Assembly (NCBI GenBank): GCA_035327305.1
Contig: DAOLDL010000004.1
Coordinates: forward strand, 12,180-76,179
Direction: 5' to 3'
DNA: 64,000 nt
Origin: Kiritimatiellia bacterium
Lineage (GTDB): Bacteria > Verrucomicrobiota > Kiritimatiellia > CAIVKH01
A program made the position numbers and the translations under genes. The notes below the pieces were generated by a model, which did not search any database, was not told where the DNA came from, and saw nothing but the letters and a program-made list of their open reading frames with translations. Positions 8,748 through 39,929 of the stretch are shown here, piece after piece (the stretch's first letter is position 1; each line of letters begins with the position of its first letter).

Positions 8748-10295
8748 ATGATTAACAGGTTTCATTCTTATACGATACTTTTCACGGGTGGAATATTCCT
8801 GTTGTGCAGTTACATGGCACACGCCGGCAGTATATCCGGCATGGTAACCCGGGACACGGAGGAACCCGTGGAAGGAATTACCGTTATAGCACAACGACAG
8901 GAGGGACTGCTTATTTTCCTGCCGATTATATCACATACCGACGAGTATGGAATCTATCAATTCACCAATCTGGCCGGGGGCACGTATAGCATTCAATTTA
9001 TCGATGAAACGCACAGGGGTTTTGCGAGCGTTTACTACGATCAGGTAACGGAAAGTTTTTTGGCAACGTTAATTCCGTTGGTTGCGGGAACTTCGGTTAC
9101 CGGAATTAATGCGGTGATGACGCCGGGCGTTCGTATATCAGGCACTGTTACCGATTGGGCCGGCAACGATCCCCTCACCAATATACTCGTTCGCGCCTAT
9201 CGAAAGCTTGGTGATGATGATTGGAGCGCTCTTTATATCGCATACACCGATGCCGACGGTAAATACAACTTGAGGGGAATGCCCTCCGGCACGTTTCGCA
9301 TCAAATACAGCGACCCTTCCTCAACGTATGCTTATCAATTTTATGATCAGGTATCGTCATTTGAAGATGCAACGGACATTGAACTTGAGTCCGGCCAGGA
9401 GGTGTCGGATGTGGACGCTATATTGGTTTCAGGATCGCGAATTGAAGGACGTATCACGGAAACGGACGCCGCCACGCCTATTTCCAACGCGATCGTGTCG
9501 GTGTATGCATGGAACGGTTCCTGGTGGGATACCGTCTCAATCACCGAGTCGGATTCCAACGGAGAATATTCCGCGGGCGGATTGCCCCATTCCGGCGAAT
9601 TTCGGGTGGGTGCTCAAGATTACTCGGGAATGTATCTGACTGCTTACCATGTCGATGCGGAAACGGTGAATAATGCAACCAGCTTGTTCATTACCAACCA
9701 CGTTGTTCTCACAAACATCAATCTGGCGCTAATGCCTGCCGCCAGAATAGAAGGCGCCATAGATCTTGCCGATTCCGTTCCCCTCACCGGCTTCTGGAAG
9801 ATTTCATTATATCGGCAAATAGATTTCGGGCTGGGTAGTTCTTGGTGGATACCTGCCTTCACGCTATTCAGCCCATCGGTCGGCACATACAGCATCGGAG
9901 GAATAACTCCGGGTTCATACCGGGTTGGAGTGACCCATGTGGACGACACCTATTATCCATCCTTCCATGACGGAGTCGATAAAGTTGAAGACGCGGTGGA
10001 TATTGATTTTCTTCCCGGTGAAACAGTAGCCGACATTGATTTCATAATGCGACTGCGCTCCCCGGAGTTGTTGCAACCAATGCACATCATAGACTTGTCC
10101 GATGGAACCCCTGTTCAATGGGCCAGCAAACCAGGCCTTTTCTATGCCATAGATCGCACCACCAACCTGCAGTCCGGGTTTATCCGCATTCAGTCCATGA
10201 TCCCCGCGACGCCTCCAGAAAACAGTTATATGGATGAATCGGGAATTACAGAAAGCCCTTTCTTCTATCGGATTGTAATTGAAAACGAACCATAA
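8748..10295 (+). CDS. Secreted protein with 4-5 tandem carboxypeptidase-regulatory-like (CarboxypepD_reg/Cna-B-like) beta-sandwich repeats
   Basis: Signal peptide followed by recurring G(S/R)ISGxVTDxxGxPLxxxxVxAY modules, e.g. SISGMVTRDTEEPVEGITVIA, RISGTVTDWAGNDPLTNILVRAY, RIEGRITETDAATPISNAIVSVYAW. Confidence 0.55.
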   Translation: MINRFHSYTILFTGGIFLLCSYMAHAGSISGMVTRDTEEPVEGITVIAQRQEGLLIFLPIISHTDEYGIYQFTNLAGGTYSIQFIDETHRGFASVYYDQVTESFLATLIPLVAGTSVTGINAVMTPGVRISGTVTDWAGNDPLTNILVRAYRKLGDDDWSALYIAYTDADGKYNLRGMPSGTFRIKYSDPSSTYAYQFYDQVSSFEDATDIELESGQEVSDVDAILVSGSRIEGRITETDAATPISNAIVSVYAWNGSWWDTVSITESDSNGEYSAGGLPHSGEFRVGAQDYSGMYLTAYHVDAETVNNATSLFITNHVVLTNINLALMPAARIEGAIDLADSVPLTGFWKISLYRQIDFGLGSSWWIPAFTLFSPSVGTYSIGGITPGSYRVGVTHVDDTYYPSFHDGVDKVEDAVDIDFLPGETVADIDFIMRLRSPELLQPMHIIDLSDGTPVQWASKPGLFYAIDRTTNLQSGFIRIQSMIPATPPENSYMDESGITESPFFYRIVIENEP

Positions 10296-12456
10296 ACACG
10301 TTTGCGGACAGGAAAATACGGTCATTATCTTTATGAAAAATATCTTTCAAAAATTTGGAAACCGGCGCATTGCTTTCATTGCCGGATTTTTGGCCATGAT
10401 CATCATCACAGGTTGTGTGACCCGCCAAACGCCACTCGAACCTGCCCGGACATCTCTCGGTGTCGATTCACGGGATGGCACCGAAATCGAGGCGGCTTTG
10501 CACTGCTTACTGAACCGGGACCTGCGAAAATTTAAACGACTTGTTCCGACACGCGCCGAGGCAGATATCCGGTTGTTGCATGGCCTGACTTATCTGCATT
10601 ATGCCGTAGATACCGATCAGGAAAATTTTGTGGAGTACTTGGCAGGCTTGGGCGTATCTCTAAATGCCCGGGATTATCATTATCAGTGGACCCCACTGCA
10701 CATCGCCGTGCGCCGGGAACATCCGAACATGGTTCGAAAGCTGTTGGCTCGCGGCGCAAACCCATCCTTGGCTGACCGCCATGGCTGGATGCCGTTGCAT
10801 CATGCCGCTTCGCTGGTCAGCGAGCCGGTTTTATCGGCATTGATTGAAGGCGGGGTTCCCCTGGAGGAAGCTTGCTCGGGTCGGTGGCAGGGATACCGAG
10901 CACTTCACATTGCGGCAAGTCATGGCTTTGTAAACAACGCCAAAGTCTTGCTGGATGGAGGCGCTGACATTCATGCCATCACCACCGAGCTTGAGGAAAC
11001 CTCCCTTCTGATCGCCGCGCGCAGAAATCATGCCCCCATGGTAATGTTTTTACTTAGCCGCGGCGCGGATGTTACGGATGTCAATCCGAGAGCGCGAAGC
11101 GCTCTCCACCTGGCCGTGTCTTCAGAAGACCCAGCCATTATTGAATCCCTGCTTAGCTACAAAGCAAACCTGGAGGCCAGGGATAAGCATGGCGAAACTC
11201 CGCTCCTGACCGCCGTAAGACTTGGCAAGCTGGGATCCATCAGCTTGCTTCTGGATCGCGGCGCGGATATGGATGCGCGCGGTCGCGAAGGTGAAACGGC
11301 CGTCGCTATCGCCGCGGAAAATGGGCATGCAGATATCATACGTTTTCTGGCGGCGCGTGGAGCTGACATTGACGCTGGTGACGATATCGGACGGACGCCA
11401 CTGATCGGCGCGGCGGCACGCAACCACCTCGAAGCAGTCCACAGCCTGATCGAATTAGGCGCTGATGTTCAAAGACGGACAAAAAACAGTCATGACGCAT
11501 TGTATTATTCCATATTGAAAGCAAGCCCGGACATTATTGATCTGCTTATTCAACATGGCGCAAATGCAACAAACACCTATGGAGTAATAAAGTGGACAGC
11601 CTTGCATTCCGCCGCCTGGGATAATCGAATTGACCTGGTTGATACCCTTCTGAAACATGGCGCTGATATTGAGGCGGGAGAAATCAGCGGTCAGCGCCCT
11701 TTAATCCTTGCCGCCCGACGCCAACACGAAGAGATGATCGCCAAACTGCTGGAAGCCGGAGCAGACCCCTACGGCGCCAGCGTTCAAGGATTGACCGCAT
11801 GGCACTATGCCAAAATGGCAGGCCTGGAAAACTCGATTCAGCGCATCGAAGAAGCGGGCGGCCCGCCACCGGAATCACTGGAACTGGTTCGTGTTTATTT
11901 CGAACTGTACCAACCGGAAGCCAAAGAAGTGTTGCTTGCCGGCCAATTCAACAACTGGGGATCTCAACGAATCCCGTTGGAGAAAAAAGATGATGGCTCA
12001 TGGTATGTAGAGGTGGACGTTTTCAATACCAATTATGGCTATAAGTTTATCGTGGATGGGCAATGGATCACGGATCCTGAAAATCCGAAAACATGGACGG
12101 ACCGCGGATACGGTTCGGTCAATTCATCCTTGATACCCTCCGAGCGATTGGTTGAAAACTATATTTCGCGTGATCAACGCAGTCCATCCGCAATCAAGGT
12201 CATTACGTTTCATTACACGAATAGCGCCGCCCGCCGCGTTCACCTCGCGGGTGAATTCAATGGATGGAACACTTCAAGTCTGCCTTTGACAAAAAATGAC
12301 CAGGGCATTTGGACGCGGGAAGTCAGGCTTTCGCCCGGTGAATATGGGTACAAATTCATAGTCGATAACGACTGGATAGCAGACCCCGCAAATGAACTCA
12401 CCAAGGAAGTGGCTGGCGCCATCAATTCACTGATCCGGATCCCCGAAGACATATAA
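10279..12456 (+). CDS. Lipoprotein with ankyrin repeats and two C-terminal CBM48/AMPK-beta-type glycogen-binding domains
   Basis: Probable true start MKNIFQKF...IIITGC (lipobox) at ~10332. About 10 ANK repeats (TPLHIAV..G.......LL..GA). Two copies of VxFxxx...AKEV.LAGxFNxWxxxxxPLxKxDDGxWxxEVxLxxGxYxYKFIVDxxWixDPxN. Start coordinate as in the ORF track. Confidence 0.7.
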   Translation: MKTNHKHVCGQENTVIIFMKNIFQKFGNRRIAFIAGFLAMIIITGCVTRQTPLEPARTSLGVDSRDGTEIEAALHCLLNRDLRKFKRLVPTRAEADIRLLHGLTYLHYAVDTDQENFVEYLAGLGVSLNARDYHYQWTPLHIAVRREHPNMVRKLLARGANPSLADRHGWMPLHHAASLVSEPVLSALIEGGVPLEEACSGRWQGYRALHIAASHGFVNNAKVLLDGGADIHAITTELEETSLLIAARRNHAPMVMFLLSRGADVTDVNPRARSALHLAVSSEDPAIIESLLSYKANLEARDKHGETPLLTAVRLGKLGSISLLLDRGADMDARGREGETAVAIAAENGHADIIRFLAARGADIDAGDDIGRTPLIGAAARNHLEAVHSLIELGADVQRRTKNSHDALYYSILKASPDIIDLLIQHGANATNTYGVIKWTALHSAAWDNRIDLVDTLLKHGADIEAGEISGQRPLILAARRQHEEMIAKLLEAGADPYGASVQGLTAWHYAKMAGLENSIQRIEEAGGPPPESLELVRVYFELYQPEAKEVLLAGQFNNWGSQRIPLEKKDDGSWYVEVDVFNTNYGYKFIVDGQWITDPENPKTWTDRGYGSVNSSLIPSERLVENYISRDQRSPSAIKVITFHYTNSAARRVHLAGEFNGWNTSSLPLTKNDQGIWTREVRLSPGEYGYKFIVDNDWIADPANELTKEVAGAINSLIRIPEDI

Positions 12457-14012: not shown

Positions 14013-14834
14013 TTACTGCGTGTTAAAAAAGCTTCCATCCAGATGGATTGCGTTTTTATCCATGGATTGCGGGAGGGTCAATCGGCCCAGATCGTGCAAA
14101 CAGCGTCTGCGTATGAGGTCGGCGGTTGACGTAAAGCTCCCGTCCATGGATTCAAGATACACTGCGGCTTCGTCACCAAACGAGACTACCGCGCGGGCGG
14201 CGGTATTGCGAACCGTGAAAACGGGATCATCAAATGCTTCGACCAAAGCAGGCAAGGCTTTGGTGTCACCTATGTCGCGCAAAGCATTTGCCGCAACGAT
14301 CCGGAGCCGCTCGCCGCCATCGACCAGCCATTTCTCCGCATGCGACCGCGCTTCGGGTACTTTCCATTTTCCCAGTGTTCGCAACGCCGCACCCCGGGTC
14401 TGCTCTTCTTCCAAGTGCGGAAACAGTCGGTCGGCATGTTCAGTGGCCTGGTGAAAGCCGAGAAAGAAGATGGCAACCCGCCGGGTTTCAATCCGGTCGT
14501 GATCGATATACGCCAGCAACGCGGGAACGATCACATCCGAAGGAAGTTCCAACACCCATTCCATAACCAGCACCTGCAACATCACCCGGTCGCCATGAAT
14601 ATGGGCCATGGCCGCGTGAAGGGAATCCGGCATACGTTCTTTCAGTTCTTCACGGGCGACCCGCTTGGCTTCACGGCGTTCCGGGGTGTTGCCGTAACGG
14701 GTGGCATCATAAAGAAGATCTTCGAGGGAACGGGCAATGGCAAAACTGGAGCAGAACAGAATAAACAGAAAGAGGATATAACCGAGATGCTTGTTACTCA
14801 TGTCCGGTATCCTCTTTGTAATCATAGACGACAC
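14013..14834 (-). CDS. Secreted HEAT-repeat (PBS-lyase HEAT-like) protein
   Basis: Signal-like N-terminus (MSNKHLGYILFLFILFCSSFAIA). Repeated R..A..AL...GD..A.P.L...L.D....VR..A..AL HEAT-like units. Confidence 0.55.
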   Translation of the reverse strand: MSSMITKRIPDMSNKHLGYILFLFILFCSSFAIARSLEDLLYDATRYGNTPERREAKRVAREELKERMPDSLHAAMAHIHGDRVMLQVLVMEWVLELPSDVIVPALLAYIDHDRIETRRVAIFFLGFHQATEHADRLFPHLEEEQTRGAALRTLGKWKVPEARSHAEKWLVDGGERLRIVAANALRDIGDTKALPALVEAFDDPVFTVRNTAARAVVSFGDEAAVYLESMDGSFTSTADLIRRRCLHDLGRLTLPQSMDKNAIHLDGSFFNTQ

Positions 14835-16719
14835 CGTACAGCGGGCGCAACGTGATCATGCTGTTGGAGAAGCCGCCGCTGTAGATGTCCGCTCCCGCCA
14901 AATCAATCAACAAGGCCAGGCTTCCATAATCGCGAAAGCCGCCGTTGTTGCCGATGCCTTGCGCGCCATCGCGTTGACGACTGAAATACGCATCGTTACC
15001 TGTGCGATCGACCAGCAACGCGAAGGCATTATTAAGCGCACGCCCCTGGGCATGATGATCCGCCGTGTAGGTGTCATCACCCTGATGGTCAAACAACATG
15101 CCCACGGAGTAATCGTGCGCCGCACCTTGGGCCAGGATGTAACCGCTGTAAGAATCGTTGCCCCACGCATCGGCCAGCAATCCGAGGCTCATGTGTATGC
15201 CACACCCCTGCCCATACTGATACATTGAGTAGCGATCATGACCGCCGCCATCGAGTAGAAACCCTGCGGAATAATAATAGCTGACGCCTTGCGCATAAAT
15301 ATCGCCGATGTAGATATCGTTGCCGGACAAGTCGATCAACGATGCCACGCCACCACCAGCATGCGGGCGCATGCCGATGGAGAAGCCCTGTGAAAGTGAA
15401 AGGTATCTCTCATCGTTTCTTTCGTGATCGAGACGGCGGTTGCCCGCAAGATACCGGTCATTGCCCGCGCGATCCAGTAGCATCCCCCACCCCTTGACGC
15501 CGGCAAATCCCTGTCCATAAAACCCGACGTCATAGACATCGTCGCCTGCGTGATCGATCAGAAATCCGAACCCGACCATCCCGGCGCCCTGTCCTATCGC
15601 GTGGCCGCGATACTGGTCACTTCCACTAAAATCCTCCAACCACGCTCCGCCAAACAACGCCGCTCCGGCGCCGACAAACGCCGACTCATAACGGTCGTCA
15701 CCGGATGTATTCAACACAACGGCCAGCCCCCACAGCGCCGAGCCGGCACCCAACAGGCCCTCTTCATGAAAAACATCATCGCCACCCAAATCAATGATCG
15801 CGGCCATGCGCCGGCCCTCAAGTCCGTTGGCCGCGCCGACGCCATTCCGATAGGTGTCACTTCCTCCCGGATCTATGATCAATAAAGCGGGGCCTTCGTA
15901 AGCATCATCACCCATGGTGCCAATTATGATGTGTCCCCAATGACTTTCGCGAATCAAGGGTGAATCCGGCCATTCTTCGATGGCGGTCACTTCGTTGCGA
16001 ATATTGAGCACTGCGTGGTAAAAAAGATGAAAGGAACGATATAGACCAGGTAGATCAACTTGATTCACCAGATCAAGCCAGCGAAGGGATGCGTCCGAGC
16101 CGTCAAGTTGTCGCGCCTCTTCTTCAATGCGATCCAGCGCCTCTTCAGAAATCCCCGCCTCAAGCAAAACGTTGCGATGCACTTCGTTGTCCGCCGACTC
16201 GAAGGTAGAAGCGAGAATGGATGCCGATAAGTAGATGCGGTCCTCAAGGGACAGATTGCCAAACGAAGCCTCCAACATTTCGTCGATCTCCTCCACATAA
16301 ACAAGAAATCGATTCACCAGGGAATCCCATCCGGCAAAAGGTTTGTCATGTGGCTCGCCCGATGCTCTTGCCAGACCGACATCCAGCTCCATCAGCTCCG
16401 CGCCGATGCTCCACCACTTTTCCGGATTGTCGCTTTCTGCGGCGGTGTAGAGTGCATCAGCATGACCGGGTAATTGCCAGGGATCGTTTAATGTGTTGGT
16501 GATCCAGCCAAGTGTCCAGAGAGGTTTGCCGTGATCTTTCTCGAATCCGGCATCCGACGAGGTCATGCCCAGCGTATCCAATGCGCGCTCAACATGATCA
16601 CGAACATGATCGGGATACAGGGGGATCAGCGGAGCGGGGTCGCCATACACCTTGCCCGAGCCGACCAACCAGATCGTGAACATGGCAACGAAAGAAGCGG
16701 TGGCTTTGTAAATCTTCAT
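14794..16719 (-). CDS. Secreted beta-solenoid protein with ~11 tandem ~25-aa 'LxDxxGNDxY......QGxG' repeats
   Basis: Signal peptide and an alpha-rich N-domain (~270 aa). The repeats then run: AAIIDLGGDDVF.., AVVLNTSGDDRY.., FLIDHAGDDVYDVGFYGQGFAG.., MLLDRAGNDRY.., ASLIDLSGNDIY.., FLLDGGGHDRY.., LLADAWGNDSY.., MLFDHQGDDTY.., ALLVDRTGNDAY.., LLIDLAGADIY.. The 3' end overlaps the HEAT-repeat gene by 41 nt. Confidence 0.6.
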   Translation of the reverse strand: MKIYKATASFVAMFTIWLVGSGKVYGDPAPLIPLYPDHVRDHVERALDTLGMTSSDAGFEKDHGKPLWTLGWITNTLNDPWQLPGHADALYTAAESDNPEKWWSIGAELMELDVGLARASGEPHDKPFAGWDSLVNRFLVYVEEIDEMLEASFGNLSLEDRIYLSASILASTFESADNEVHRNVLLEAGISEEALDRIEEEARQLDGSDASLRWLDLVNQVDLPGLYRSFHLFYHAVLNIRNEVTAIEEWPDSPLIRESHWGHIIIGTMGDDAYEGPALLIIDPGGSDTYRNGVGAANGLEGRRMAAIIDLGGDDVFHEEGLLGAGSALWGLAVVLNTSGDDRYESAFVGAGAALFGGAWLEDFSGSDQYRGHAIGQGAGMVGFGFLIDHAGDDVYDVGFYGQGFAGVKGWGMLLDRAGNDRYLAGNRRLDHERNDERYLSLSQGFSIGMRPHAGGGVASLIDLSGNDIYIGDIYAQGVSYYYSAGFLLDGGGHDRYSMYQYGQGCGIHMSLGLLADAWGNDSYSGYILAQGAAHDYSVGMLFDHQGDDTYTADHHAQGRALNNAFALLVDRTGNDAYFSRQRDGAQGIGNNGGFRDYGSLALLIDLAGADIYSGGFSNSMITLRPLYGVVYDYKEDTGHE

Positions 16720-17252
16720 GAATTGAAAAGTACGTCATACCATAAATACATGGTCATGCCCAGCGCCGCGCAGGTTTTTACAAACATGACCCAGAGCCTG
16801 GCCCAAACCGCGCCGCGGGCGATACGTGCGGCTTGCAGATCCTGCTTCAATCGGGCGCGTTCCACCCAGTAGGCGAAAAGAAAACTGCCAAGCAACATTC
16901 CCAGGATACTGCTGATGATTGGAACCGGAGCGAAGCTTCCAACAATCATCCCTAAAATGCCGCCAAACAAAGCGGCCCACCCGGCTCGCATCGATCCGCC
17001 GCGTTTCGTAATGCCGAGATTGCCGGCAAAGAAATCAAAAACCTCCAATGCGGCCGAGAGCGCGAAAAACGCCCCGGCAACCCACCATCCCGGAGCGCCG
17101 TCCGGTCGGCACCAGATCAAGATGACGGACGCGCCCGCAACCAGCCAAGTGCCGGAAAAGGCAAACAGGGAAACAAGAATGCCCGACAGACACAGAAGAA
17201 CGGCGGCGGCATGACCCAACCACCAGCCCGACTGCTGAAGCAAGGATTCCAC
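16716..17252 (-). CDS. DUF456-like small polytopic membrane protein
   Basis: 178 aa with 4 predicted TM helices and Gly-rich helices (GSMRAGWAALFGGILGMIVGSFAP). 4-nt overlap with the downstream repeat-protein gene. Confidence 0.5.
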   Translation of the reverse strand: MESLLQQSGWWLGHAAAVLLCLSGILVSLFAFSGTWLVAGASVILIWCRPDGAPGWWVAGAFFALSAALEVFDFFAGNLGITKRGGSMRAGWAALFGGILGMIVGSFAPVPIISSILGMLLGSFLFAYWVERARLKQDLQAARIARGAVWARLWVMFVKTCAALGMTMYLWYDVLFNS

Positions 17253-17267
17253 GCGTGACGGTTATGA

Positions 17268-18206
17268 TCAGTCCACCGTGTGAATGATAAACCCCGGCTC
17301 GATGCCGGAGTAGATATTCAGCCGGGACTTCTCGAGGATTTCCTTGATTTGATCGGCATCCAACTCTGTCTTCAGCATCGGAACTTCGATGCGCGTGTCT
17401 TTTTCCAGCAGGATGCGCTTGGAAACGTCACGAAAGCCGGGTTTGCCGATCGTAATGGTGTGATCACCTTTGTATATCTCAAAATCCTGAATCGGCGTGG
17501 TGCCAATCAGCATGCCGTCAATTTCGAGCAGTGCCGGGTCGGCGGTGGTGGAAACGGAAAGTTTCACGATCGGCCTGTTTCTGAATTCATCCTGCCGGCG
17601 GACCAGTGCGTCGCGGATGACGGGGATGGTTTCATCCATGGCGCCTTCCATCAGCAAGTAGACATCGTCTTCACCAAGCGTGGTTTTTACGTTATCGGTT
17701 TGCCGGAATCGACGCGAAGCCGCGCCATCAACGGCGGCGAGGACGGAACCGTCGCGGGTATCCAGCGCCTCCAGCGCCACACGCACGGTGAAATCATCAA
17801 GATACGCCGTATATCCTCCTTGATGCACGGAGGAACGGCTGGAGGATATGGTCAGCAGACTGCCTCGCAATACGACATCGGCATTCAATTGTTGCGCGGC
17901 CCGCAAGAAGGAAGGCTTGGCTTCGGTCTCCTTGCTGAACTTTTCCATCTGGGTGAAAAAGTCGCGGCGATCAATCAGACGGAACCCCTCTTTTCCGGCC
18001 AATTTTTTATTCAGGATAAACGCTCCCTTTTCCGCCATGACTGCGGTGGACAAAGCAACCGCCGGAACGTAGGACGGCAAAGCGCCGGCCCGGTTTTCAA
18101 AATCCAACACAACCACCCGGAAAGAATCATCGGAGCGGGCGTTTCCGATGAAAACCAGCATTAAAAGCGCGATCATTTGTTGCATGTATTTCATTGGCCA
18201 CCTCAA
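17268..18206 (-). CDS. Secreted protein with CsgG/LpoB-like N-terminal domain and C-terminal PEGA domain
   Basis: Signal peptide. SFRVVVLDFENRAGAL is typical of CsgG-like domains. C-terminus IDGMLIGTTPIQDFEIYKGDHTITIGKPGFRDVSKRI fits the PEGA consensus. Confidence 0.5.
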   Translation of the reverse strand: MRWPMKYMQQMIALLMLVFIGNARSDDSFRVVVLDFENRAGALPSYVPAVALSTAVMAEKGAFILNKKLAGKEGFRLIDRRDFFTQMEKFSKETEAKPSFLRAAQQLNADVVLRGSLLTISSSRSSVHQGGYTAYLDDFTVRVALEALDTRDGSVLAAVDGAASRRFRQTDNVKTTLGEDDVYLLMEGAMDETIPVIRDALVRRQDEFRNRPIVKLSVSTTADPALLEIDGMLIGTTPIQDFEIYKGDHTITIGKPGFRDVSKRILLEKDTRIEVPMLKTELDADQIKEILEKSRLNIYSGIEPGFIIHTVD

Positions 18207-18302
18207 TCGTTTATTGTTACATATGCGGCTGTAAGTTTGACGCCGCCATGCCGATATTATTCAAAATCAGAAATAACGCCATCAGATAAGCAATCGACCG
18301 CC

Positions 18303-21029
18303 ATGAACCAATCGACAAGCCCCCGGCCCAGCATCATCAGTCTATTCAATGGCGACAAACACTGGTATGCCCTGTTTATCGTGGCTTTGGCGCTGGTATT
18401 CAACCTTGCCCGCACCGCGCCCGATATTATTCCGGGTGAATCCGCCCAGTTGGTCGCGCAACATGCCGGTCATGACGTATTTGCCCCCATGTCACACGTC
18501 GCCTGGGGATGGGCAGGTCGACTTTTCGAATTTATTCCCGTGGGGAATCATGCATTTCGCTGGAATCTTTTGAGCGCCGTTGCGGGAGCCGCCGCCTGTG
18601 GAATGGTATTTCTGTTGACCAGGCGTCTCATGGGACGAAAGGATGATAAACTTTTATTGGGCGGCGACCTTTATGCATACCGGAATCTGGCCGGCCTGGT
18701 CGCAGGACTCCTTTTGGTTTTTTGCCAACCGCTTCATATTGTTTCGACCATGGCAAACCCCGCCACCTTTGAACTATTACTGCTACTTGTTTCCATCTGG
18801 TTGCTGGCCCGGTTTCATGACACCGGGCACTTGCGGTTCGGCGTTGGAGCCATGGCATTATTCGGGGCCGTCATCACTCAATATGCATTCGCAATCATGC
18901 TTGCCCCCTTGTTTGGCATCATGATGCTATACGTCACATGGCGCAAAAATCATTTCCGGCCGCCATCACTGACTAGACTATTACTGGCATTTACGGCCGG
19001 GTTGTCGCTATTTCTGGTGATTGCCCTGTTGTTCATGCAAAAACCCGGATACCAGTGGGCGGAATTAGACGGAATCGGCCAGGTTTTATGGTTTATGGCC
19101 CGGGATCTTTATGCGGAAATCCGGGTTGCGACACCACGAATTGCCATCATCCTGGTCGTTATTTACAGCCTTCTGCCTTTTATATGTGTGGTCATCATGT
19201 CAAAGCAGATGACCATCAGCTATTTTATCCTGATACTCATTTGCGCCTTGTTGAGCGCCTTGTTGTTCTTGAACTTCCGGTTCGCTCCGTGGCCCATGTT
19301 CGGTTTTCGCCCTCTATTGATTGCACCTTATGTGATTGCGGCGGCCTGGAGCGGATGCCTCGTGGCTTATGTGATGGGACTCATCAAATCCGCATGGTTA
19401 TTTCGATTCCACTACAACCGTATCAAATGGATACAGCCGACACTGTCTGTTCTGTGGCTGGCACTGGCCGGCACCCTGATCCTTGCTTCGGGTTGGAAAA
19501 CCGTTCGCAACGAAGGCGCTTCATCAACTAGGGGAATAGCGAAATATGCCGGATATATGGTCAACCAGTTGGACGACAACATGTGGATTGTTGTCGATGG
19601 GCAATTGGAGCCGGTTCTTCGCATCAAATGCGCCGAGATCGGAAGAAATCCCCTGATCATTTCCAGTAGCCGCATACATCATCGTCCCTATCTGAATGCT
19701 CTCGCGCATCAATTAAACAACGAACGACTTGGCTCCATGGCCGAAATGGGGCTTATTCCTTTAATCCGGGAACAACTCGACCACCCCGAAGGGCCGGAAA
19801 AGATCATCGCCGTGGCCGGAGATCCGGGCATTCTGCGTTTTGTCATCGGTACTGCCTGGCCCGACCGGACCATCTACACAAGTGAAAAACCGAATGTGGA
19901 TGCCATGAATTGGGCTGAATATATGGAAAACCTGCGTGCGTGGTGGCGGCATCTCCCGATCTCGAAGGAATATGGCCCGTTCAACGAACTCATCAAGCGA
20001 CTCCACATTCAAAGCGCGCGAATCGCCAATGATACCGGCATCTTTTTAGAGGAAAACGGCAAGCATGACTTCGCCCGCGAGGCATTCCTCGAGGCGATTA
20101 GAATTCACCCGCAAAACCTTTCCGCTCATTTGAATTTGCGCGGGCAATTACCCAATGGCGAGTCAGCCGATTGGCTTGAAGAGGATATCGAACGCTTATC
20201 CGCGATGTGGCGAGGTCGAGCCACACTCGCGCAAATCATGGATGTACACGGGTTAATTCGCCATGACGCCGCGATCGAAACCGTTGATCAACGGTGGGGG
20301 CGCACCGATCCAGTTAGCCGACTCGACGAAACCATCCTTCAGCTTTTACAGCTTGAGGATGAAGAGGCGTTCGGTTTAGCCATGACAATAAGCAATAACG
20401 ATAGTGGCGCCAAATTGGCGATAGCCCGCATAGTCGCCGGTAAAAACCGGCATGTACTTGCCCGGAAAATCCTCAACTCAATAGACGCCAAAGACGATTT
20501 TCAGCAAAGTGTGATCTTGGAACTGGCAAATCTCGACATACAAATGGGGTTCCGGGATCGCGCCTACCAGACACTTTCCGCCATTCCGGAGACGGAAATC
20601 AGCGATCCGCGTATTCTTATCCTGCTAGCCAGCCTGACTGTGGATTCCGACCCGCAAAAATGCGACCAATACCTTGGCCGGCTTGAAAATTACCCCAACT
20701 TGTTGCCCTCGTTAGTGTTACCTATCGCCCGAATTCTTGAGTCACGACAAAAACCGGAAAAGGCCATTCGCCATCTTGCCTATCTTACGGCCCTGCAACC
20801 ATTTAATCGGGATGCAATACAAATGATTATCCGACTTCATCTGGATCAACAGGATATTCCATCCGCCATTACCTATGCAAAACAGCTTTTTACCATTGAA
20901 TCACACAATCCTCTGGCCAATGCCGCATTGGCATTACATTTGGAATCGAGGGGAAATCTCCCCGCGGCGGATAAGGCGCGTAGAATCGCTTTATCGGGCA
21001 ATCCCTTATTATCAATATATTTTGAATAA
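18303..21029 (+). CDS. Polytopic membrane protein (GT-C/PMT-like, DUF2723-type N-domain) with C-terminal TPR repeats
   Basis: Likely start MNQSTSPRPSIISLF. The track ORF starts at 18177. About 11 TM helices with an Asp-containing first loop, then a ~450-aa TPR-like helical region. Confidence 0.55.
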   Translation: MNQSTSPRPSIISLFNGDKHWYALFIVALALVFNLARTAPDIIPGESAQLVAQHAGHDVFAPMSHVAWGWAGRLFEFIPVGNHAFRWNLLSAVAGAAACGMVFLLTRRLMGRKDDKLLLGGDLYAYRNLAGLVAGLLLVFCQPLHIVSTMANPATFELLLLLVSIWLLARFHDTGHLRFGVGAMALFGAVITQYAFAIMLAPLFGIMMLYVTWRKNHFRPPSLTRLLLAFTAGLSLFLVIALLFMQKPGYQWAELDGIGQVLWFMARDLYAEIRVATPRIAIILVVIYSLLPFICVVIMSKQMTISYFILILICALLSALLFLNFRFAPWPMFGFRPLLIAPYVIAAAWSGCLVAYVMGLIKSAWLFRFHYNRIKWIQPTLSVLWLALAGTLILASGWKTVRNEGASSTRGIAKYAGYMVNQLDDNMWIVVDGQLEPVLRIKCAEIGRNPLIISSSRIHHRPYLNALAHQLNNERLGSMAEMGLIPLIREQLDHPEGPEKIIAVAGDPGILRFVIGTAWPDRTIYTSEKPNVDAMNWAEYMENLRAWWRHLPISKEYGPFNELIKRLHIQSARIANDTGIFLEENGKHDFAREAFLEAIRIHPQNLSAHLNLRGQLPNGESADWLEEDIERLSAMWRGRATLAQIMDVHGLIRHDAAIETVDQRWGRTDPVSRLDETILQLLQLEDEEAFGLAMTISNNDSGAKLAIARIVAGKNRHVLARKILNSIDAKDDFQQSVILELANLDIQMGFRDRAYQTLSAIPETEISDPRILILLASLTVDSDPQKCDQYLGRLENYPNLLPSLVLPIARILESRQKPEKAIRHLAYLTALQPFNRDAIQMIIRLHLDQQDIPSAITYAKQLFTIESHNPLANAALALHLESRGNLPAADKARRIALSGNPLLSIYFE

Positions 21030-21034
21030 TCGTC

Positions 21035-21075
21035 TAAAAATTCATTGACGCAATTAACCTATTGGGTATTTTTAT
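21035..21075 (+). promoter_or_regulatory. Candidate sigma70-like promoter for the PEP-CTERM gene
   Basis: TTGACG followed 16 nt later by TATTTT, ~75 nt upstream of the ATG. AGGAAAA is placed as an RBS at -10 from the ATG. Confidence 0.25.
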
Positions 21076-21146
21076 AGCCAGATGTTGATTTGGGTTAGGC
21101 GTGTAGCCTTTACCGAGTGGTAAACCAGTTCGAGTGAGGAAAAAAT

Positions 21147-21884
21147 ATGAAGTCTTTTATATCAGGTCTTATGGCGGCTATGCTTATCGGCACCGCACCG
21201 GCAATGGCAATCGTCTTCAATGACGCAACGGGTGATATCGATGCCGGCATTGCTACTGGCGGTGGTACACTGGATATCGTTTCCATGGAAGTGGCAAACA
21301 CTCTCGCCGACATTACGTTCACATTGACCGTAAATGGAGATATTTCTGCCACTGATTGGGGTAACTTCATGATCGGCATTTCCACGCCGGGCGCTCCCGG
21401 CGCTCCGACCGGCAATGGTTGGAATCGTCCGATCAATTTGAGTTCTGCCAATGGCTATATGAATCACTGGATTGGTTCATGGGTCAACGGTGGCGGCGGA
21501 TCTCAACATTGGGTCTACACTGGAAGCGGTACGGAAGGCGGCACCGGCGGCAATTGGGGTGGACCATCAGCTTTGGCTGGTTTTTCCTTGAATGCAGGCG
21601 CTCAAAGCACCATCACCTATACCCTTACCTTGGCATCTCTTGGTTTGGGCATCGGCGACACCTTCTACTTTGACGCTTATACTTCAGGTAGCGGTGGTAC
21701 TGATAGCGCGGTTGACGCTCTTTCAAACCCGAACGTTTCAATCACCGCATGGGATCAAGCTTACACATCCGACGACGCAGTTACCGGATTGAGCTCCTAC
21801 ACGGTTGTTCCCGAGCCTTCCTCAATCGCCTTGCTCGGACTCGGCGCGTTGTTGTTTGGTCGTCTGTTCCGTCGGCGCGCATAA
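21147..21884 (+). CDS. PEP-CTERM sorting-domain secreted protein (Gly/Thr/Ser-rich)
   Basis: Signal peptide and a low-complexity G/T/S-rich body. Canonical C-terminus VVPEPSSIALLGLGALLFGRLFRRRA (PEP motif, TM helix, Arg cluster). Confidence 0.8.
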   Translation: MKSFISGLMAAMLIGTAPAMAIVFNDATGDIDAGIATGGGTLDIVSMEVANTLADITFTLTVNGDISATDWGNFMIGISTPGAPGAPTGNGWNRPINLSSANGYMNHWIGSWVNGGGGSQHWVYTGSGTEGGTGGNWGGPSALAGFSLNAGAQSTITYTLTLASLGLGIGDTFYFDAYTSGSGGTDSAVDALSNPNVSITAWDQAYTSDDAVTGLSSYTVVPEPSSIALLGLGALLFGRLFRRRA

Positions 21885-21902
21885 TTTCAAGCGATTTCTC
21901 GC

Positions 21903-23840
21903 ATGACAAAAAGCGATGCGTTATCAAAACCGCGTCGCTTTTTTTTTCGTCTTTTTACCGTATTACTTTCCTTCCTGCTTCTGGCGGGAGTTGAAGCCGG
22001 ACTTAGAATTGCCGGGTATGGCGGCTACCCCCCGTTCCTGCGAGTCGCAGGCGCACTACCCTCCGGTGATAAGGTCTGTCTTGTGGAGCCGGCGGCATCC
22101 AAACCATACTTCTTTGCGAACCCCAGTCGACCAGGTTATGCAGAACAAACCAACTTCCTGATGCCGAAACCGGCGGACACCATTCGCATTTTTCTTTTTG
22201 GTGAATCGGCGGCGAAGGGATATCCGCAACCACGCAACCTTGCCGTCTCGACCTTTCTTCAATCCATGCTGGAAGATGTGTGGCCCGACCGCCACATTGA
22301 AGTCATCAATATGGGAACCACTGCCGTGGCCAGCTTTCCGATAATCTACGCGGTGCGCGATGCAACAGATTATCAACCCGACCTGTTCATTTTTTACGTT
22401 GGCAACAATGAATTTTTTGGAGCATATGGAACAGAGTCAATCAACCGGGTCGGCGGCAATTCACGGTGGTTGACGCACGTTTCGCGGCATCTTCGCGGTC
22501 TGGCCATTTTTCAGATCGTGGCGGAATGGCTCTATACCAAACCGCCCGTCGATAAATCGCTCATGGAGGAAATGATGGGGTCGGCGCTGGTGCCGGTTGA
22601 TTCGCCATCCCGCGCACGTGCCGCGCGCAATCTGCGGATCAATCTGGATAAAATGCTGGACATCTCACATCGTGCCGGGATACCCGCGATCGTCTGCACC
22701 ACCGCCAGCAATGAATCGGGGTTGAGGCCGTTGGGAGCAAATCAGGAAGCGATCGCACATTTCGAAAAAGGGAGGCTAATGCTGGAGCAAGGGGACTCGA
22801 AAGGCGCCCGAGAAGCATTCCTTGATGCCCGGGACATGGATACACTTCCGTGGCGACCAATCCGGCATACCGAAAACGCCATTCGCGAATCAGCCGCCAA
22901 TCAGCAGGCACTGCTGTGCGATATTGCCGATATTTTCCGAGACATGAGTCCGGAAGGCGCAACCGGTTGGGATTTGGTCGATGATCACGTTCACTTATCC
23001 GTCAAAGGCCAGGCCATGGCCGCCCGCGCCATGATAACGACCATGACAAACTTTGTGAATGAGTTGAGGGTGAATCCGGAATCCCTGAAGAACCTTCCCG
23101 AGTGGAATATATATGCCCACCGGTTGGGCACAAATTTTCTTGATGACTATCGGGTAAATCACACATTGCGAATACTATTCAGTGTGCCATTCATGAAACA
23201 ATCGAATCCGGAAGCATTCAAGAGATTCGAAACGGCATGCCGCCGCGCGGAAATGCGCATGCCACCTGCTCTATTATCGGAAGCTCGAAGATGGCAGACC
23301 ATGGCACCACACGCTGGAGGACTTCGCCCGCTCACCGGCATGGCCGCCCGAACATTCCTGGCCTCCGGAAAAACGGAGGAGGCCCTGAATTTTTACCGCC
23401 TGGCTCAACGACAGGTTCCGGACTACACCTCGTGGTATCTGGAATATGTATACTTTGAACTGGCTTGCCTCGAAATCATCAATGGAAACCTGACCACTAC
23501 CGAACTCAACAAAGCACAACACGGCATTGAACAGGGGCTGTTTCTGCTGGCTCACGGAGAATCCGTCACCGGATTGACGGAACGCTATGTCGGCAGGCTT
23601 CATCAGTTGCGGTCCGAATGGGCGGAAGCCATTCCCATGTTGTTAGCCGCCCGAAAAAAACTTTCCGCCGAAGATTTGGTCGCATGTGATAAAGCATTGG
23701 TAACATCGTATATCAAAATCGGTGATAAGCAGGCCGCGCTGGCTCTTACTGAAGACGGCATTCAAAACAGCGGACGCTTTTCTGCCATCTACCAACAGAT
23801 GAAATCGCTGGTTGAAACGTCTCTGGCTGGTGAATCATAA
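21903..23840 (+). CDS. Membrane-anchored SGNH/GDSL-like hydrolase with C-terminal TPR-like helical domain
   Basis: N-terminal TM helix. IRIFLFGESAAKGY is block I with a GES variant of GDS. FIFYVGNNEF is block III. DDHVHLS is the block V DxxH. Confidence 0.45.
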   Translation: MTKSDALSKPRRFFFRLFTVLLSFLLLAGVEAGLRIAGYGGYPPFLRVAGALPSGDKVCLVEPAASKPYFFANPSRPGYAEQTNFLMPKPADTIRIFLFGESAAKGYPQPRNLAVSTFLQSMLEDVWPDRHIEVINMGTTAVASFPIIYAVRDATDYQPDLFIFYVGNNEFFGAYGTESINRVGGNSRWLTHVSRHLRGLAIFQIVAEWLYTKPPVDKSLMEEMMGSALVPVDSPSRARAARNLRINLDKMLDISHRAGIPAIVCTTASNESGLRPLGANQEAIAHFEKGRLMLEQGDSKGAREAFLDARDMDTLPWRPIRHTENAIRESAANQQALLCDIADIFRDMSPEGATGWDLVDDHVHLSVKGQAMAARAMITTMTNFVNELRVNPESLKNLPEWNIYAHRLGTNFLDDYRVNHTLRILFSVPFMKQSNPEAFKRFETACRRAEMRMPPALLSEARRWQTMAPHAGGLRPLTGMAARTFLASGKTEEALNFYRLAQRQVPDYTSWYLEYVYFELACLEIINGNLTTTELNKAQHGIEQGLFLLAHGESVTGLTERYVGRLHQLRSEWAEAIPMLLAARKKLSAEDLVACDKALVTSYIKIGDKQAALALTEDGIQNSGRFSAIYQQMKSLVETSLAGES

Positions 23841-38870: not shown

Positions 38871-39929
38871 ATGTTTTGCTCAATCATAAAAACCACCAAC
38901 ACAAAACTATTGTCACGGTTTGTGCTTCTGGTTTTATTTTTCACCACTACCAGCGTTTACGCGAGGGTTTGGACGTCACAGCGAGGATCGACGATCGATG
39001 CAGAATTCGTCCGCATGGAGGGTGATCTCGTGATTCTGCAAAAAAACGACGGTGAACAGTTGCGCATTCGACTGGCTGATCTGATTCCTGCCGACCAGGT
39101 ATTCGCCCGCCAGTCCTCCGTTGCACCGACAATACCGGCCGCCCACAGAAATACAAAACCGCAAACCCCGATCACCCCCGGATATTCGATGATCATGAAC
39201 GGTGTCGAGCTGGTTCCGGGAAAGCGGATTCAATATGAAGCAGATGTCCCCAATACACTACAGAAGGAGGCCTCGAAGGACGGAAACCCCACCCAGTTAA
39301 AATCCCGGGCGGTCATTGCGTTGCCGATGAACTTTGATCCAGCCAAAACCTACCCGGTGCTGATCATTAACGCAACGTCCGACGGCAATGCATCAAGCGT
39401 GGATCATCATCGACAATACTGGGAGACCGGAATCGATCGCGGATGGATCGTTATCGCCGCAGATCCATTAGAAAAACCTAAGGTCGATAACAATATGTGG
39501 CGTTGGGCGCTGGTCTCGTCATCGCTCGAATCCATTCACAAAATCTGGCCGCAATCGCGCGCCTGGCCGGTAGCCACGGCAGGGTTTTCCGGAGGAGCCA
39601 AACGGTCCGGCTACATTGGCGCACTGCTCGCCAAAAATGATTATAAACTCATAGGGATGTTCATGGGCGGATGCAATCAAGACATGGCCAGCAAAGGGCT
39701 TGAAACCTTCAAACCGAAAAAAAGTGATTTTCTGCGGGTTCCGATATTTCTAAGCAACGGAACATCCGACACCATTGCAACCGTTGAAGCCGGACGGCGA
39801 ACCCTGCAATCCATGGACAAATCGGGATTCAAAAAACTTAAACTCGAGACATATGACGGCGGACATGAACTGTATAAACCACATGTAATGACTGCGCTTG
39901 ATTGGTTTACCAGCGAGCAAAACAAGTAA
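38871..39929 (+). CDS. Secreted alpha/beta-hydrolase (esterase) with N-terminal SHD1-like domain
   Basis: Signal peptide. WTSQRGSTIDAEFVRMEGDLVILQKNDGEQLRIRLADL matches the bacterial SHD1/SLA1-homology pattern. Nucleophile elbow GFSGGA in a C-terminal a/b-hydrolase fold. Confidence 0.55.
   Translation: MFCSIIKTTNTKLLSRFVLLVLFFTTTSVYARVWTSQRGSTIDAEFVRMEGDLVILQKNDGEQLRIRLADLIPADQVFARQSSVAPTIPAAHRNTKPQTPITPGYSMIMNGVELVPGKRIQYEADVPNTLQKEASKDGNPTQLKSRAVIALPMNFDPAKTYPVLIINATSDGNASSVDHHRQYWETGIDRGWIVIAADPLEKPKVDNNMWRWALVSSSLESIHKIWPQSRAWPVATAGFSGGAKRSGYIGALLAKNDYKLIGMFMGGCNQDMASKGLETFKPKKSDFLRVPIFLSNGTSDTIATVEAGRRTLQSMDKSGFKKLKLETYDGGHELYKPHVMTALDWFTSEQNK

Follow-up and report, generated by a model that had tools for sequence, protein, structure and literature searches.

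The Ank-CBM48 gene of a Kiritimatiellia bacterium, found in a window of 64,000 nucleotides (the whole stretch of DNA analysed), probably encodes an exported protein that has no catalytic domain and binds alpha-glucan in the manner of SusE/F, rather than a conserved protein-docking scaffold. In the model that we propose from its sequence, Sec would export the precursor, Cys28 would receive the lipid and signal peptidase II would remove the signal peptide, so that a mature protein of ~680 aa stays anchored in the membrane. In relatives that have no lipobox, the protein would be either secreted or unattached within the periplasm. A disordered tether of ~20 residues precedes a rigid solenoid of 13 ankyrin repeats in the in silico model, and the pattern of conservation suggests that repeats 1-10 are mainly a length-variable stalk that would keep the C-terminus off the membrane. 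Beyond it lie two CBM48 modules joined by a flexible linker, and in each of them Trp, Lys, Trp and Asn would form a site for alpha-1,4-glucan (starch, glycogen or maltodextrin); the pair, whose fold and binding residues were shown in silico, would give avidity for the polymer. A Trp/Arg/Gln patch on repeats 11-13 may either dock CBM48 module 1 or add a ligand contact. By analogy, alpha-glucan would be captured or retained at the cell surface or in the periplasm, with amylases and transporters encoded elsewhere.

Table 1. Coordinates of the Ank-CBM48 gene, its predicted parts and the gene upstream, as positions in the window
Feature	Position (nt)	Strand	Residues	Remarks
Upstream gene, secreted protein of CarboxypepD_reg/SdrD_B-type repeats	8748..10295	+		37 nt from Ank-CBM48 gene
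Ank-CBM48 gene, probable coding region	10333..12456	+	707 aa plus stop	maximal ORF from TTG 10279
Lipoprotein-type signal peptide	10333..10416	+	1-28	n-region MKNIFQKFGNRR, h-region IAFIAGFLAMIII, lipobox I-T-G-C; from pattern and hydrophobicity
Lipobox I-T-G-C	10405-10416	+		Cys28, predicted lipidated residue
Predicted disordered tether	10417..10476	+	29-48	VTRQTPLEPARTSLGVDSRD...; pLDDT <50; lowest conservation, identity 0.12
N-terminal helical cap	10477..10572	+	49-80	AF2 model
Ankyrin repeats 1-10	10573..11580	+	81-416	framework conserved, binding face not
Ankyrin repeats 11-13	11581..11877	+	417-515	conserved non-consensus patch W421, W429, Q454, R462, R463, W490
CBM48 module 1	11878..12132	+	516-600	W100/K126/W133/N150 equivalents all present (FNNW, YKF, GQW, VNS)
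Inter-module linker	12133..12192	+	601-620	IPSERLVENYISRDQRSPSA; low confidence in full-length model
CBM48 module 2	12193..12453	+	621-707	aligns to rat AMPK beta1 CBM (1Z0M)

Tandem CBM48 modules and their putative ligand

Pfam membership was judged against the curated gathering score, and the protein matched both AMPK1_CBM (PF16561; E 1e-27, 96.6 bits for a cut-off of 26.8) and CBM_48 (PF02922; E 9e-21, 74.4 bits for a cut-off of 22.4), each in 2 stretches. The two modules shared 42% identity (E 3e-21), and no recent duplication was visible at the DNA level in the gene, which showed only a weak 99-nt ankyrin periodicity. The AF2 model of the tandem reached a pLDDT of 90.1, and Foldseek matched it to 2F15 (TM 0.84, rmsd 1.2 A), to the cyclodextrin complex 4YEE_A (TM 0.88) and to 1Z0M (TM 0.86-0.87), as well as to SEX4 and branching enzymes. 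Superposition on the crystal structures of AMPK beta CBMs gave TM values of 0.84-0.88 and rmsd of 1.2-1.6 A at 33% identity. Similarly, phmmer against the PDB retrieved the AMPK beta1/beta2 CBMs at E 1e-11, together with a type II pullulanase. The residues equivalent to W100, K126, W133 and N150 of AMPK beta1 were kept in both modules of the query and, across the family, in module 2 of 24 out of 24 members (query counted) and in module 1 of most. In AMPK, the W100G and K126Q mutants lose glycogen binding and W133L lowers it (PMC6274970). Both modules also presented the highest conservation of the protein (identities of 0.44 and 0.47, with 0.30 for the ankyrin region and 0.12 for the tether). 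The preliminary description had reported two CBM48 modules and no catalytic domain, and both points held: the modules are genuine AMPK-type domains with the sugar-binding Trp/Lys/Trp/Asn intact, not a generic Ig-like fold devoid of the aromatic residues, and the Pfam search detected no catalytic family in the protein. AMPKBI, the C-terminal domain that interacts with the alpha/gamma subunits, had no match either, and the protein ends 2-4 residues past module 2.

The two C-terminal modules most likely bind alpha-glucan, a putative ligand that we favour because secreted GH13 alpha-amylases carry the same CBM48 subfamily immediately behind their signal peptide. CBM48 also occurs on CE1 esterases (7B5V), so the class has no strict link to alpha-glucan, and the modules could instead bind a protein, the exopolysaccharide or capsule of the bacterium itself, or another glycan of plant or algal origin, making an envelope or matrix tether. 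The CE1 enzymes in question (7B5V and others) are xylan-active feruloyl/acetyl esterases, the speciality of Kiritimatiellales is sulfated and other non-starch polysaccharides (PMC6388578), and the related Bacteroidota proteins with four CBM48 modules lie outside alpha-glucan loci and adjoin an aspartyl protease gene. In addition, starch does not support growth of the cultured Kiritimatiella glycovorans, which counts against alpha-glucan capture as such. We nevertheless consider a ligand other than alpha-glucan very unlikely: each module retains the full set of four AMPK glycogen-contact residues, CE1-type CBM48s were absent from the phmmer matches in the PDB at E<1e-3, and among solved structures the closest were AMPK beta CBMs, a pullulanase, SEX4/LSF1 and branching enzymes. 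The fusion of the same subfamily to secreted GH13 amylases points in the same direction.

Start codon, signal peptide and predicted export

The ORF 10279..12456 (+) was intact and comprised 725 aa when counted from the TTG. The true start is likely ATG 10333, which yields 707 aa; the same start was chosen independently by other gene callers (Logan/ENA), whose P0299 is identical at 706 of 707 residues. The 707-aa form opens with MKNIFQKFGNRRIAFIAGFLAMIIITGC, has 4 K/R in its n-region, and contains in this N-terminal segment the sole strongly hydrophobic stretch of the protein. A lipoprotein signal was defined as a charged n-region, a hydrophobic h-region and the motif [LVI][ASTVI][GAS]C within the first ~40 residues; the query presented MKNIFQKFGNRR, IAFIAGFLAMIII and ITGC, a PROSITE-style pattern match up to Cys28. 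The protein is thus probably exported and lipid-anchored, as judged from this pattern.

Most complete members of the family open with a signal peptide. N-terminal hydrophobic signals were found in P0174, P0197, P0206, P0215, P0235, P0236, P0238, P0249, P0276, P0294 and L012, and P0003 has a signal-like segment in frame upstream of its called start. No signal was seen in the called N-termini of P0226, P0239, P0274 and P0298, which may be due to wrong starts or be genuine. The lipobox itself was seen in about 3 members (the query, P0002 in its extended ORF, and P0294), most other complete members having SPI-type (signal-peptidase-I) signals. Because the lipobox is limited to so few members, membrane anchoring is apparently dispensable for the function of the family. 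The export suggested earlier was therefore supported, by the recurrence of signal-like N-termini and by the lipobox signal of the query, while the predicted lipoprotein nature stood for the query, with its ITGC, and apparently not as a trait of the family.

The NCBI model (HMP88898.1, 686 aa) starts at ATG 10396 (M22) and loses the signal peptide. From that start, the unexported protein would be a cytoplasmic scaffold of glycogen granules: through its CBM48 pair it would attach to glycogen made by the cell itself, and its ankyrin platform would recruit metabolic or regulatory proteins, as AMPK beta, plant PTST and the PP1 glycogen-targeting subunits do. The cytoplasm is the classical location of both ankyrin repeats and AMPK-type CBMs, internal starts can give a cytosolic form of another ankyrin lipoprotein, Enterobacter cloacae Tli, and the called N-termini with no obvious signal would also fit. 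Moreover, Kiritimatiella is predicted to store glycogen (PMC5148204). Such a scaffold is unlikely, however, since the 21 residues before M22 are a textbook n-region and h-region kept by other gene callers, and signals of differing sequence and type recur in the family, which would not be expected from chance upstream extensions of the ORF. Starting at M22, the protein would open with MIIITGC, a hydrophobic stub, and the ankyrin face needed to recruit partners is unconserved.

Conservation along the ankyrin solenoid

Pfam Ank families matched the protein with E values from 1e-45 to 1e-70 (Ank_2, E 8e-70; Ank, E 2e-63 in 10 stretches). The AF2 model contained 13 helix-pair repeats with a spacing of 33-36 residues, plus the N-terminal cap, and all 13 were in register with the DARPin consensus, presenting the 33-residue helix-turn-helix of an ankyrin domain; the initial count of ~10 repeats was too low. 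The solenoid had also been described as a protein-interaction scaffold, a view with which its conservation disagrees. Identity on the canonical binding face was 0.15 overall and 0.05-0.22 on repeats 1-10, versus 0.42 at framework positions. The number of repeats varied too, P0002 and P0003 having 2-3 additional ones, and the CBM48 tandem of complete members started at residues ranging from 432 to 764. Because their binding face is unconserved and their number variable, repeats 1-10, which make up most of the solenoid, look like a length-variable spacer more than a conserved protein-docking groove. We know of no precedent for an ankyrin solenoid that serves as a passive spacer.

On repeats 11-13, the conserved patch includes Trp residues at positions where they are rare in generic ankyrin repeats (p13, 0.7%; p8, 0.1%). 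Its conservation shows that part of the solenoid at least is, in all likelihood, functional. The patch adjoins CBM48 module 1 and could be an intramolecular interface with it. That this concave-face patch is itself a carbohydrate-binding surface, cooperating with both CBM48 modules, seems quite unlikely; if true, an ankyrin solenoid would have come to serve outside the cytoplasm both as a glycan-binding platform and as a rigid stalk, a role for which we know of no earlier description in ankyrin repeats.

In nearly every case studied, ankyrin repeats bind proteins, and the rare Trp residues of the patch could also mark a docking site. The protein would then be an adaptor for an envelope complex that degrades alpha-glucan, with the solenoid binding an amylase, a pullulanase or an outer-membrane transporter and the CBM48 pair bringing the substrate. 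This would make it a Gram-negative analogue of the amylosome Sas/scaffoldin proteins or of PTST, and Sas20 and other non-catalytic starch-binding proteins do assemble into amylosomes (PMC9112005). We give the adaptor a lesser but real chance, given that the binding face is unconserved on 10 of the 13 repeats, that repeat number varies, that no conserved neighbour gene hints at a partner, and that the patch, lying beside CBM48-1, is possibly an intramolecular interface.

Family distribution, known systems and gene neighbourhood

About 22 of the best 150 clusters (50% identity) presented the layout of ankyrin repeats plus two CBM48 modules. The predicted fusion is therefore not a one-off but is shared by a family that comprises at least 20 clusters. 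The family is small and unstudied, is assembled from ordinary, familiar parts, and is currently annotated as 'ankyrin repeat domain-containing protein' and nothing more. Its named sources are all Kiritimatiellia or Verrucomicrobia, environmental or MAG, with free-living sediment or water MAGs among them, which argues against a host-directed ankyrin effector or adhesin aimed at host glycogen or starch granules. Bacterial ankyrin proteins are often effectors, and the top NCBIfam matches were Dot/Icm ankyrin effector models (AnkY, AnkH, AnkG and others). Every one of these fell far under its curated cut-off and covered generic ankyrin repeats only, the Sec/lipoprotein signal would hold the protein on the producer's own envelope, and no secretion-system genes were present nearby. 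The host glycogen-like polymer offered as an option in the preliminary description thus found no indication of either a host target or an effector role, and we regard such a function as extremely improbable. Assignment to the Dot/Icm T4SS ankyrin effectors was rejected, the best match reaching 143.6 of the 600 bits of the equivalog cut-off.

SusE and SusF, lipoproteins of the outer membrane, carry 2-3 starch-binding CBMs in tandem (PMC4173775), and N-terminal membrane-bound spacer domains have been proposed in PUL lipoproteins (PMC11216935). Ank-CBM48 resembles SusE/SusF in its predicted lipoprotein signal, its probable N-terminal non-binding spacer and its tandem non-catalytic beta-sandwich modules, putatively starch-binding here, with no enzyme. 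In contrast, there is no sequence relationship (no match to SusF_SusE, PF16411, at E<=0.1), the spacer is an alpha-helical solenoid of 13 ankyrin repeats instead of an Ig-like domain, the modules are AMPK-type CBM48, the phylum is Kiritimatiellota/Verrucomicrobiota, and the gene lies outside any SusC/D locus, with unconserved neighbours. With the AMPK beta CBM (1Z0M, 2F15, 4YEE), it shares the fold and the glycogen-contact residues W100, K126, W133 and N150, but its modules are in tandem, it is predicted to be exported and not cytosolic, and it has neither the C-terminal alpha/gamma-subunit-binding region nor a kinase partner.

The closest relatives devoid of ankyrin repeats include secreted GH13 alpha-amylases (such as L007, Krumholzibacteriia; L010, Fibrobacteraceae) with 3 CBM48 modules right after the signal peptide. 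These, and standalone exported multi-CBM48 proteins of Bacteroidota (about 480 aa, 4 modules), have the same CBM48 subfamily, signal peptides and tandem arrangement, at 35-40% identity to the Ank-CBM48 tandem; the former carry an Alpha-amylase domain, the latter CBM48 only, and neither has ankyrin repeats. Plant PTST combines a coiled coil with CBM48. Like PTST and R. bromii Sas6/Sas20 (PMC9112005), Ank-CBM48 is non-catalytic and pairs an alpha-glucan-binding module (putative here) with a structural/interaction module, but theirs is a coiled coil or dockerin, the compartment differs and homology is confined to the CBM. Finally, E. cloacae Tli, a periplasmic ankyrin-repeat lipoprotein of T6SS immunity, sets a precedent for such a protein, with a lipoprotein signal followed by ankyrin repeats; unlike Ank-CBM48, it is a short protein devoid of CBMs, and its gene lies beside that of its Tle lipase. 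No lipase, effector or T6SS gene adjoins the Ank-CBM48 gene, and a Tli-type immunity protein was discarded as a candidate, with no cognate Tle phospholipase or T6SS effector gene adjacent.

If alpha-glucan capture is correct, some Kiritimatiellia/Verrucomicrobiota would hold polysaccharide at the envelope using a different part than Bacteroidota, a variable-length ankyrin rod replacing Ig-like spacers with AMPK-type glycogen-binding modules at its tip. This would add a further architecture to the non-catalytic glycan-capture proteins, provide a rare instance of extracytoplasmic ankyrin repeats in free-living bacteria, and flag a family known only for its ankyrin repeats as carbohydrate-related. 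It has no bearing on any long-standing open question, and its practical value would be modest: PVC genomes could be annotated better in the style of CAZy, and the protein would offer a modular scaffold for CBM display that is rigid by nature.

No neighbouring gene was conserved across 6 loci (this one and five related), and no GH13, transporter or other alpha-glucan gene adjoined the gene at any of them, observations that count against alpha-glucan capture at the envelope, as does the normally cytoplasmic location of glycogen. The upstream CarboxypepD_reg/SdrD_B gene may be co-transcribed with the Ank-CBM48 gene, its membership of the unit being doubtful because it is not conserved beside family members. 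Besides this repeat protein, the local neighbours are threonine synthase and cytochrome c assembly genes.

Gene start, predicted export signal and domain architecture

The ORF 10279..12456 (+) is intact, has a GC content of 0.527 like the remainder of the window and counts 725 aa from its TTG, while the earliest in-frame ATG, at 10333, gives a 707-aa product with the N-terminus MKNIFQKFGNRRIAFIAGFLAMIIITGC. We took 10333..12456 as the gene of the ankyrin-CBM48 (Ank-CBM48) protein. On three Logan/ENA contigs, independent gene calls likewise start at MKNIF and give a product of 707 aa (706/707 identical). The public record HMP88898.1 comes from a MAG labelled Kiritimatiellia bacterium and is annotated as 'ankyrin repeat domain-containing protein', with no mention of a CBM. 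It lacks a signal peptide because its gene model begins at M22 (ATG 10396), so that a canonical lipoprotein signal loses its n-region and most of its h-region. The 707-aa product carries four Lys/Arg within residues 1-12, its sole strongly hydrophobic segment at residues 15-25 (Kyte-Doolittle 2.95) and a PROSITE-PS51257-style lipobox ending at Cys28. By sequence, its N-terminus thus qualifies as a lipoprotein signal, as the preliminary description had proposed.

Signals also recurred among its homologues. The ORF of P0002 could be extended upstream to give ...SRMILLGAVTGLFAAGC, ending in a lipobox, and in P0003 an in-frame upstream ATG adds MRMAELRVGTTVSLLVLASGPLCAAP, which is signal-like and without a lipobox; both proteins seem to have been called too short at the N-terminus. 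Hydrophobic signal-like N-termini were present in P0174, P0197, P0206, P0215, P0235, P0236, P0238, P0249, P0276 and the protein of locus L012, and P0294 has a lipobox. A few members, in whose called N-termini no signal was seen, may represent wrong starts or truncation. Export is therefore the predicted family trait, and lipidation is not. Translation from M22, the NCBI start, would imply a protein that stays in the cytoplasm as a glycogen scaffold. We consider this unlikely, since signals that differ in sequence and type but recur at one position are strong evidence against it. Many relatives have signals of the SPI type and not of the SPII type, so that the compartment common to the family would be at least the periplasm and may include the surface. 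An ankyrin-repeat lipoprotein of the periplasm is already known from E. cloacae (Tli).

Pfam found ankyrin families (E 1e-45 to 1e-70), AMPK1_CBM on two stretches (E 1e-27, 96.6 bits against a cut-off of 26.8), CBM_48 on two stretches (E 9e-21, 74.4 bits against 22.4) and no catalytic family, in agreement with the initial claim that a glycoside-hydrolase domain is missing. The whole-protein AlphaFold2 model (mean pLDDT 78.5) is divided in the table below. The repeats are ankyrin repeats, and only their number, put at about ten in the preliminary description, was an undercount, as both the model and the DARPin register gave 13; the remaining protein description, with a tandem CBM48 pair at the C-terminus, agreed with Pfam and the model. 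The two modules were 42% identical to each other, and the gene showed nothing more than a faint 99-nt periodicity at the DNA level, indicating that the duplications are old.

Features of the Ank-CBM48 protein, its gene surroundings and related loci (nucleotide positions refer to the window unless a locus is named)
Feature	Position	Strand	Remarks
Secreted 515-aa protein, repeated CarboxypepD_reg/SdrD_B-type beta-sandwiches	8748-10295	+	upstream neighbour, 37 nt from Ank-CBM48 start
Ank-CBM48 signal region	10333-10416	+	truncated in HMP88898.1, kept by Logan/ENA callers
Disordered N-terminus	residues 1-48		AlphaFold2 model
Solenoid, 13 helix pairs plus N-terminal cap	residues 49 to 509		AlphaFold2 model; 33-36-residue spacing
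Ankyrin repeat starts (13)	residues 81, 115, 148, 184, 218, 251, 284, 317, 350, 383, 417, 450, 483		sequence, DARPin register
Beta-sandwich, first	residues 519-599		AlphaFold2 model
Linker	residues 601-619		AlphaFold2 model, low confidence
Beta-sandwich, second	residues 622-703		AlphaFold2 model
Concave-face residue	W421		conservation 0.94
Concave-face residue	W429		conservation 0.78
Concave-face residue	Q454		conservation 0.72
Concave-face residue	R462		conservation 0.89
Concave-face residue	R463		conservation 0.67
Concave-face residue	W490		conservation 0.89
HEAT-repeat protein	14013-14834	-	
641-aa protein	14794-16719	-	N-terminal hydrophobic segment, no Pfam match
DUF456 protein	16716-17252	-	
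CsgG/PEGA-domain protein	17268-18206	-	
TMEM260-like/TPR, PEP-CTERM and TPR genes	18177-23840	+	PEP-CTERM protein at 21147-21884
761-aa ORF	33324-35609	-	no Pfam match at E<=1e-4
352-aa ORF	38871-39929	+	no Pfam match at E<=1e-4
CBM20-esterase	59025-60725	+	
Secreted GH13 alpha-amylase with three CBM48	L007 9962-13018		also in L006, L014, L030
Secreted GH13 alpha-amylase with three CBM48	L010 9896-13030		
Asp_protease_2/4xCBM48 pair	L058 8145-10729		
Asp_protease_2/4xCBM48 pair	L059 8319-10726		

The CBM48 tandem, its relatives and its likely ligand

The second module aligned over its full length to the rat AMPK beta1 CBM (1Z0M, E 1e-11), and the tandem sequence also matched type II pullulanase, LSF1, SEX4 and branching enzymes in the PDB. 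A model of the tandem built from a 17-sequence family alignment (pLDDT 90.1) had AMPK beta CBMs as its best PDB matches, among them 2F15 (TM 0.84, rmsd 1.2 A, 33% identity) and 4YEE chain A, a complex with glucosyl-cyclodextrin (TM 0.88). The glycogen-contact residues were then taken from alignments of every module in 24 family members to AMPK beta1. The equivalents of W100 (FNNW/FNGW), K126 (YKF), W133 and N150 were retained in both query modules; module 2 kept all four in 24/24 members, and exceptions in module 1 were occasional (Y in place of W100 in three members, R in place of K126 in one, and no W133 in two). AMPK no longer binds glycogen with W100G or K126Q, and its binding is weakened by W133L (PMC6274970). 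Judged by score, modelled fold and binding residues, the C-terminal modules are genuine CBM48 members, and both are apparently binding-competent. The initial CBM48 assignment thus held: the fold is of the AMPK type with its W/K/W/N residues, and not a generic Ig-like one devoid of sugar-binding aromatics.

A homologue search with the full-length protein was swamped by Ank-only proteins and gave just two relatives built in the same way, P0002 (41% identity) and P0003 (36%), whereas searching with the tandem alone brought the relatives out. This exhaustive phmmer search returned 9,938 cluster representatives at E<=1e-3. When the best 150 of the 9,938 were classified by phmmer against the query Ank region and module 2, about 22 of them had ankyrin repeats at the N-terminus and a pair of CBM48 modules at the C-terminus, or three modules in the case of P0174. 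Across 185,579 species-representative genomes, the architecture occurred in three of the best 80 loci, one from Kiritimatiellia (L004) and two from Verrucomicrobia (L005 and L012). The named database members belong to Kiritimatiellia as well. As far as the sampled databases go, the family therefore seems restricted to Kiritimatiellota and Verrucomicrobiota. The giant proteins P0153 (1812 aa), P0166 (1975 aa), P0175 (6207 aa) and P0271 (2446 aa), with 8-17 detectable AMPK-type CBM48 modules each, also ranked among the best matches to the tandem.

Outside the ankyrin proteins, the closest relatives of the tandem (35-40% identity) include secreted proteins, about 1,000 aa long, from Krumholzibacteriia and Fibrobacteraceae. 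In these, the signal peptide is directly followed by three AMPK1_CBM modules, then by an X25-like domain and an Alpha-amylase (GH13) catalytic domain. These amylases link the module subfamily to the breakdown of alpha-glucan outside the cytoplasm. Exported proteins made up of CBM48 arrays alone were common as well, such as those of Bacteroidota, which have signal peptides and four modules in about 480 aa. At two such loci from distant Bacteroidota, Prolixibacteraceae and Mucilaginibacter, the four-module gene is directly preceded by a retropepsin-like Asp_protease_2 gene, the ends overlapping or abutting. No starch genes surround this conserved pair, which has no obvious alpha-glucan link, so this context gives no support for an alpha-glucan ligand. 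Moreover, CBM48 modules are present on CE1 esterases (7B5V), and the class is therefore not exclusively alpha-glucan-directed; none of the CE1-esterase modules was among the PDB sequence matches of the tandem. We regard a ligand other than alpha-glucan as very unlikely for these modules.

The ankyrin solenoid and the proposed role

Regional identity to the query, computed over 19 full-length members, was 0.12 for the tether, 0.15 for the N-terminal cap, 0.30 for the Ank region, 0.44 for CBM48-1, 0.21 for the inter-module linker and 0.47 for CBM48-2. Within the repeats, framework positions had a mean identity of 0.42 and the canonical target-binding positions (2, 3, 5, 13, 14 and 33) one of 0.15, with values of 0.05-0.22 on repeats 1-10. 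P0002 and P0003 have two to three more repeats than the query, and the tandem start ranges from residue 432 to 764 among complete members. The variable target-binding positions and repeat number spoke against the protein-interaction scaffold originally suggested, and from these alignments the Ank region outside repeats 11-13 looks like a length-variable stalk, not a conserved docking groove.

The exception was the CBM-adjacent repeats 11-13, which present conserved non-consensus residues on their concave face. Among 693 repeats from 117 generic Ank proteins, Trp occurred at position 5 in 7.6%, at position 13 in 0.7% and at position 8 in 0.1%; its rarity at the latter two makes W429 and W490 family-specific. 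The patch could be the packing site of CBM48-1 or a further ligand site, and it is quite unlikely that repeats 11-13 themselves serve as an ankyrin surface for binding carbohydrate. If the protein were a specific adaptor, it would use this same conserved patch to recruit an amylase or a transporter; no alpha-glucan enzyme or transporter lies next to the gene in the window or the compared loci, and we give such an adaptor a low but appreciable probability.

Our preferred reading is that of an exported alpha-glucan-binding protein. The query would be exported by Sec and, in this organism, lipidated at Cys28; in the predicted structure, a flexible tether is followed by a rigid stalk of 13 repeats, which would carry two flexibly linked CBM48 modules, whose fold and residues in silico suggest multivalent binding of alpha-1,4-glucan. 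Starch, glycogen or maltodextrin would in this way be captured or retained at the surface or in the periplasm. Such a role resembles that of SusE/SusF, lipoproteins of the outer membrane in which an N-terminal spacer precedes two or three starch-binding CBMs in tandem (PMC4173775); spacer domains at the N-terminus have been proposed for PUL lipoproteins (PMC11216935). By analogy, the query may work like SusE/F or plant PTST while being a member of neither. It has no PF16411 match and lies outside any PUL, which excludes a SusE/F homologue, and it lacks the subunit-interaction domain of an AMPK beta subunit. NCBIfam scores were far below cut-off for GlgB (shared CBM/repeats only), the anti-phage protein MzaA (Ank repeats only) and T4SS (Dot/Icm) Ank effectors (Ank similarity only), and a host-directed effector is extremely improbable. 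The match to Tli-type immunity proteins was likewise far below cut-off and due to Ank only, with no effector gene adjacent. No paper on an ankyrin-CBM48 fusion was found in a literature search. All the parts are well known, as are non-catalytic exported glycan-binding proteins as a kind; what is new is that a small, PVC-restricted family uses an ankyrin solenoid as its membrane-proximal module, together with the conserved Trp patch.

Genomic neighbourhood

The C-terminal 80 aa or so of the upstream neighbour matched no Pfam family, and this gene was not found beside Ank-CBM48 members in the other compared genomes. Downstream lies a convergent threonine synthase gene and, farther away, cytochrome c assembly genes and those of a HEAT-repeat protein and a CsgG/PEGA protein. 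Promoter and terminator scans gave counts not above shuffled expectation and were uninformative on the transcription unit. All-vs-all BLASTP of the window, L001, L002, L004, L005 and L012 revealed no conserved neighbour, the Ank-CBM48 gene being the only common family; there is therefore no conserved operon and no operon-based functional clue. No alpha-glucan genes were located within about 10 kb of the gene, and the only other starch-related gene in the rest of the window encodes a CBM20-esterase about 47 kb away. This exported protein consists of a signal peptide, CBM_20 (E 5e-16) and PF00756 'Esterase', with no glycoside hydrolase. Among solved structures it is closest to CE1 feruloyl/acetyl esterases, several of which have an N-terminal CBM48 ('Isoamylase N-terminal domain protein' 6MOT, 7B5V) where this protein has its CBM20.

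An Rfam scan of the window gave no matches, and two ORFs of 761 and 352 aa remained without a Pfam family. A minus-strand run of apparently exported proteins (14013-18206), taken with the Ank protein, suggests that the organism exports several alpha-solenoid repeat proteins. On the plus strand, a 950-aa TMEM260-like (protein O-mannosyltransferase-like) + TPR protein is followed by a small PEP-CTERM protein and another TPR protein, which may constitute an exosortase-substrate or glycosylation cluster.
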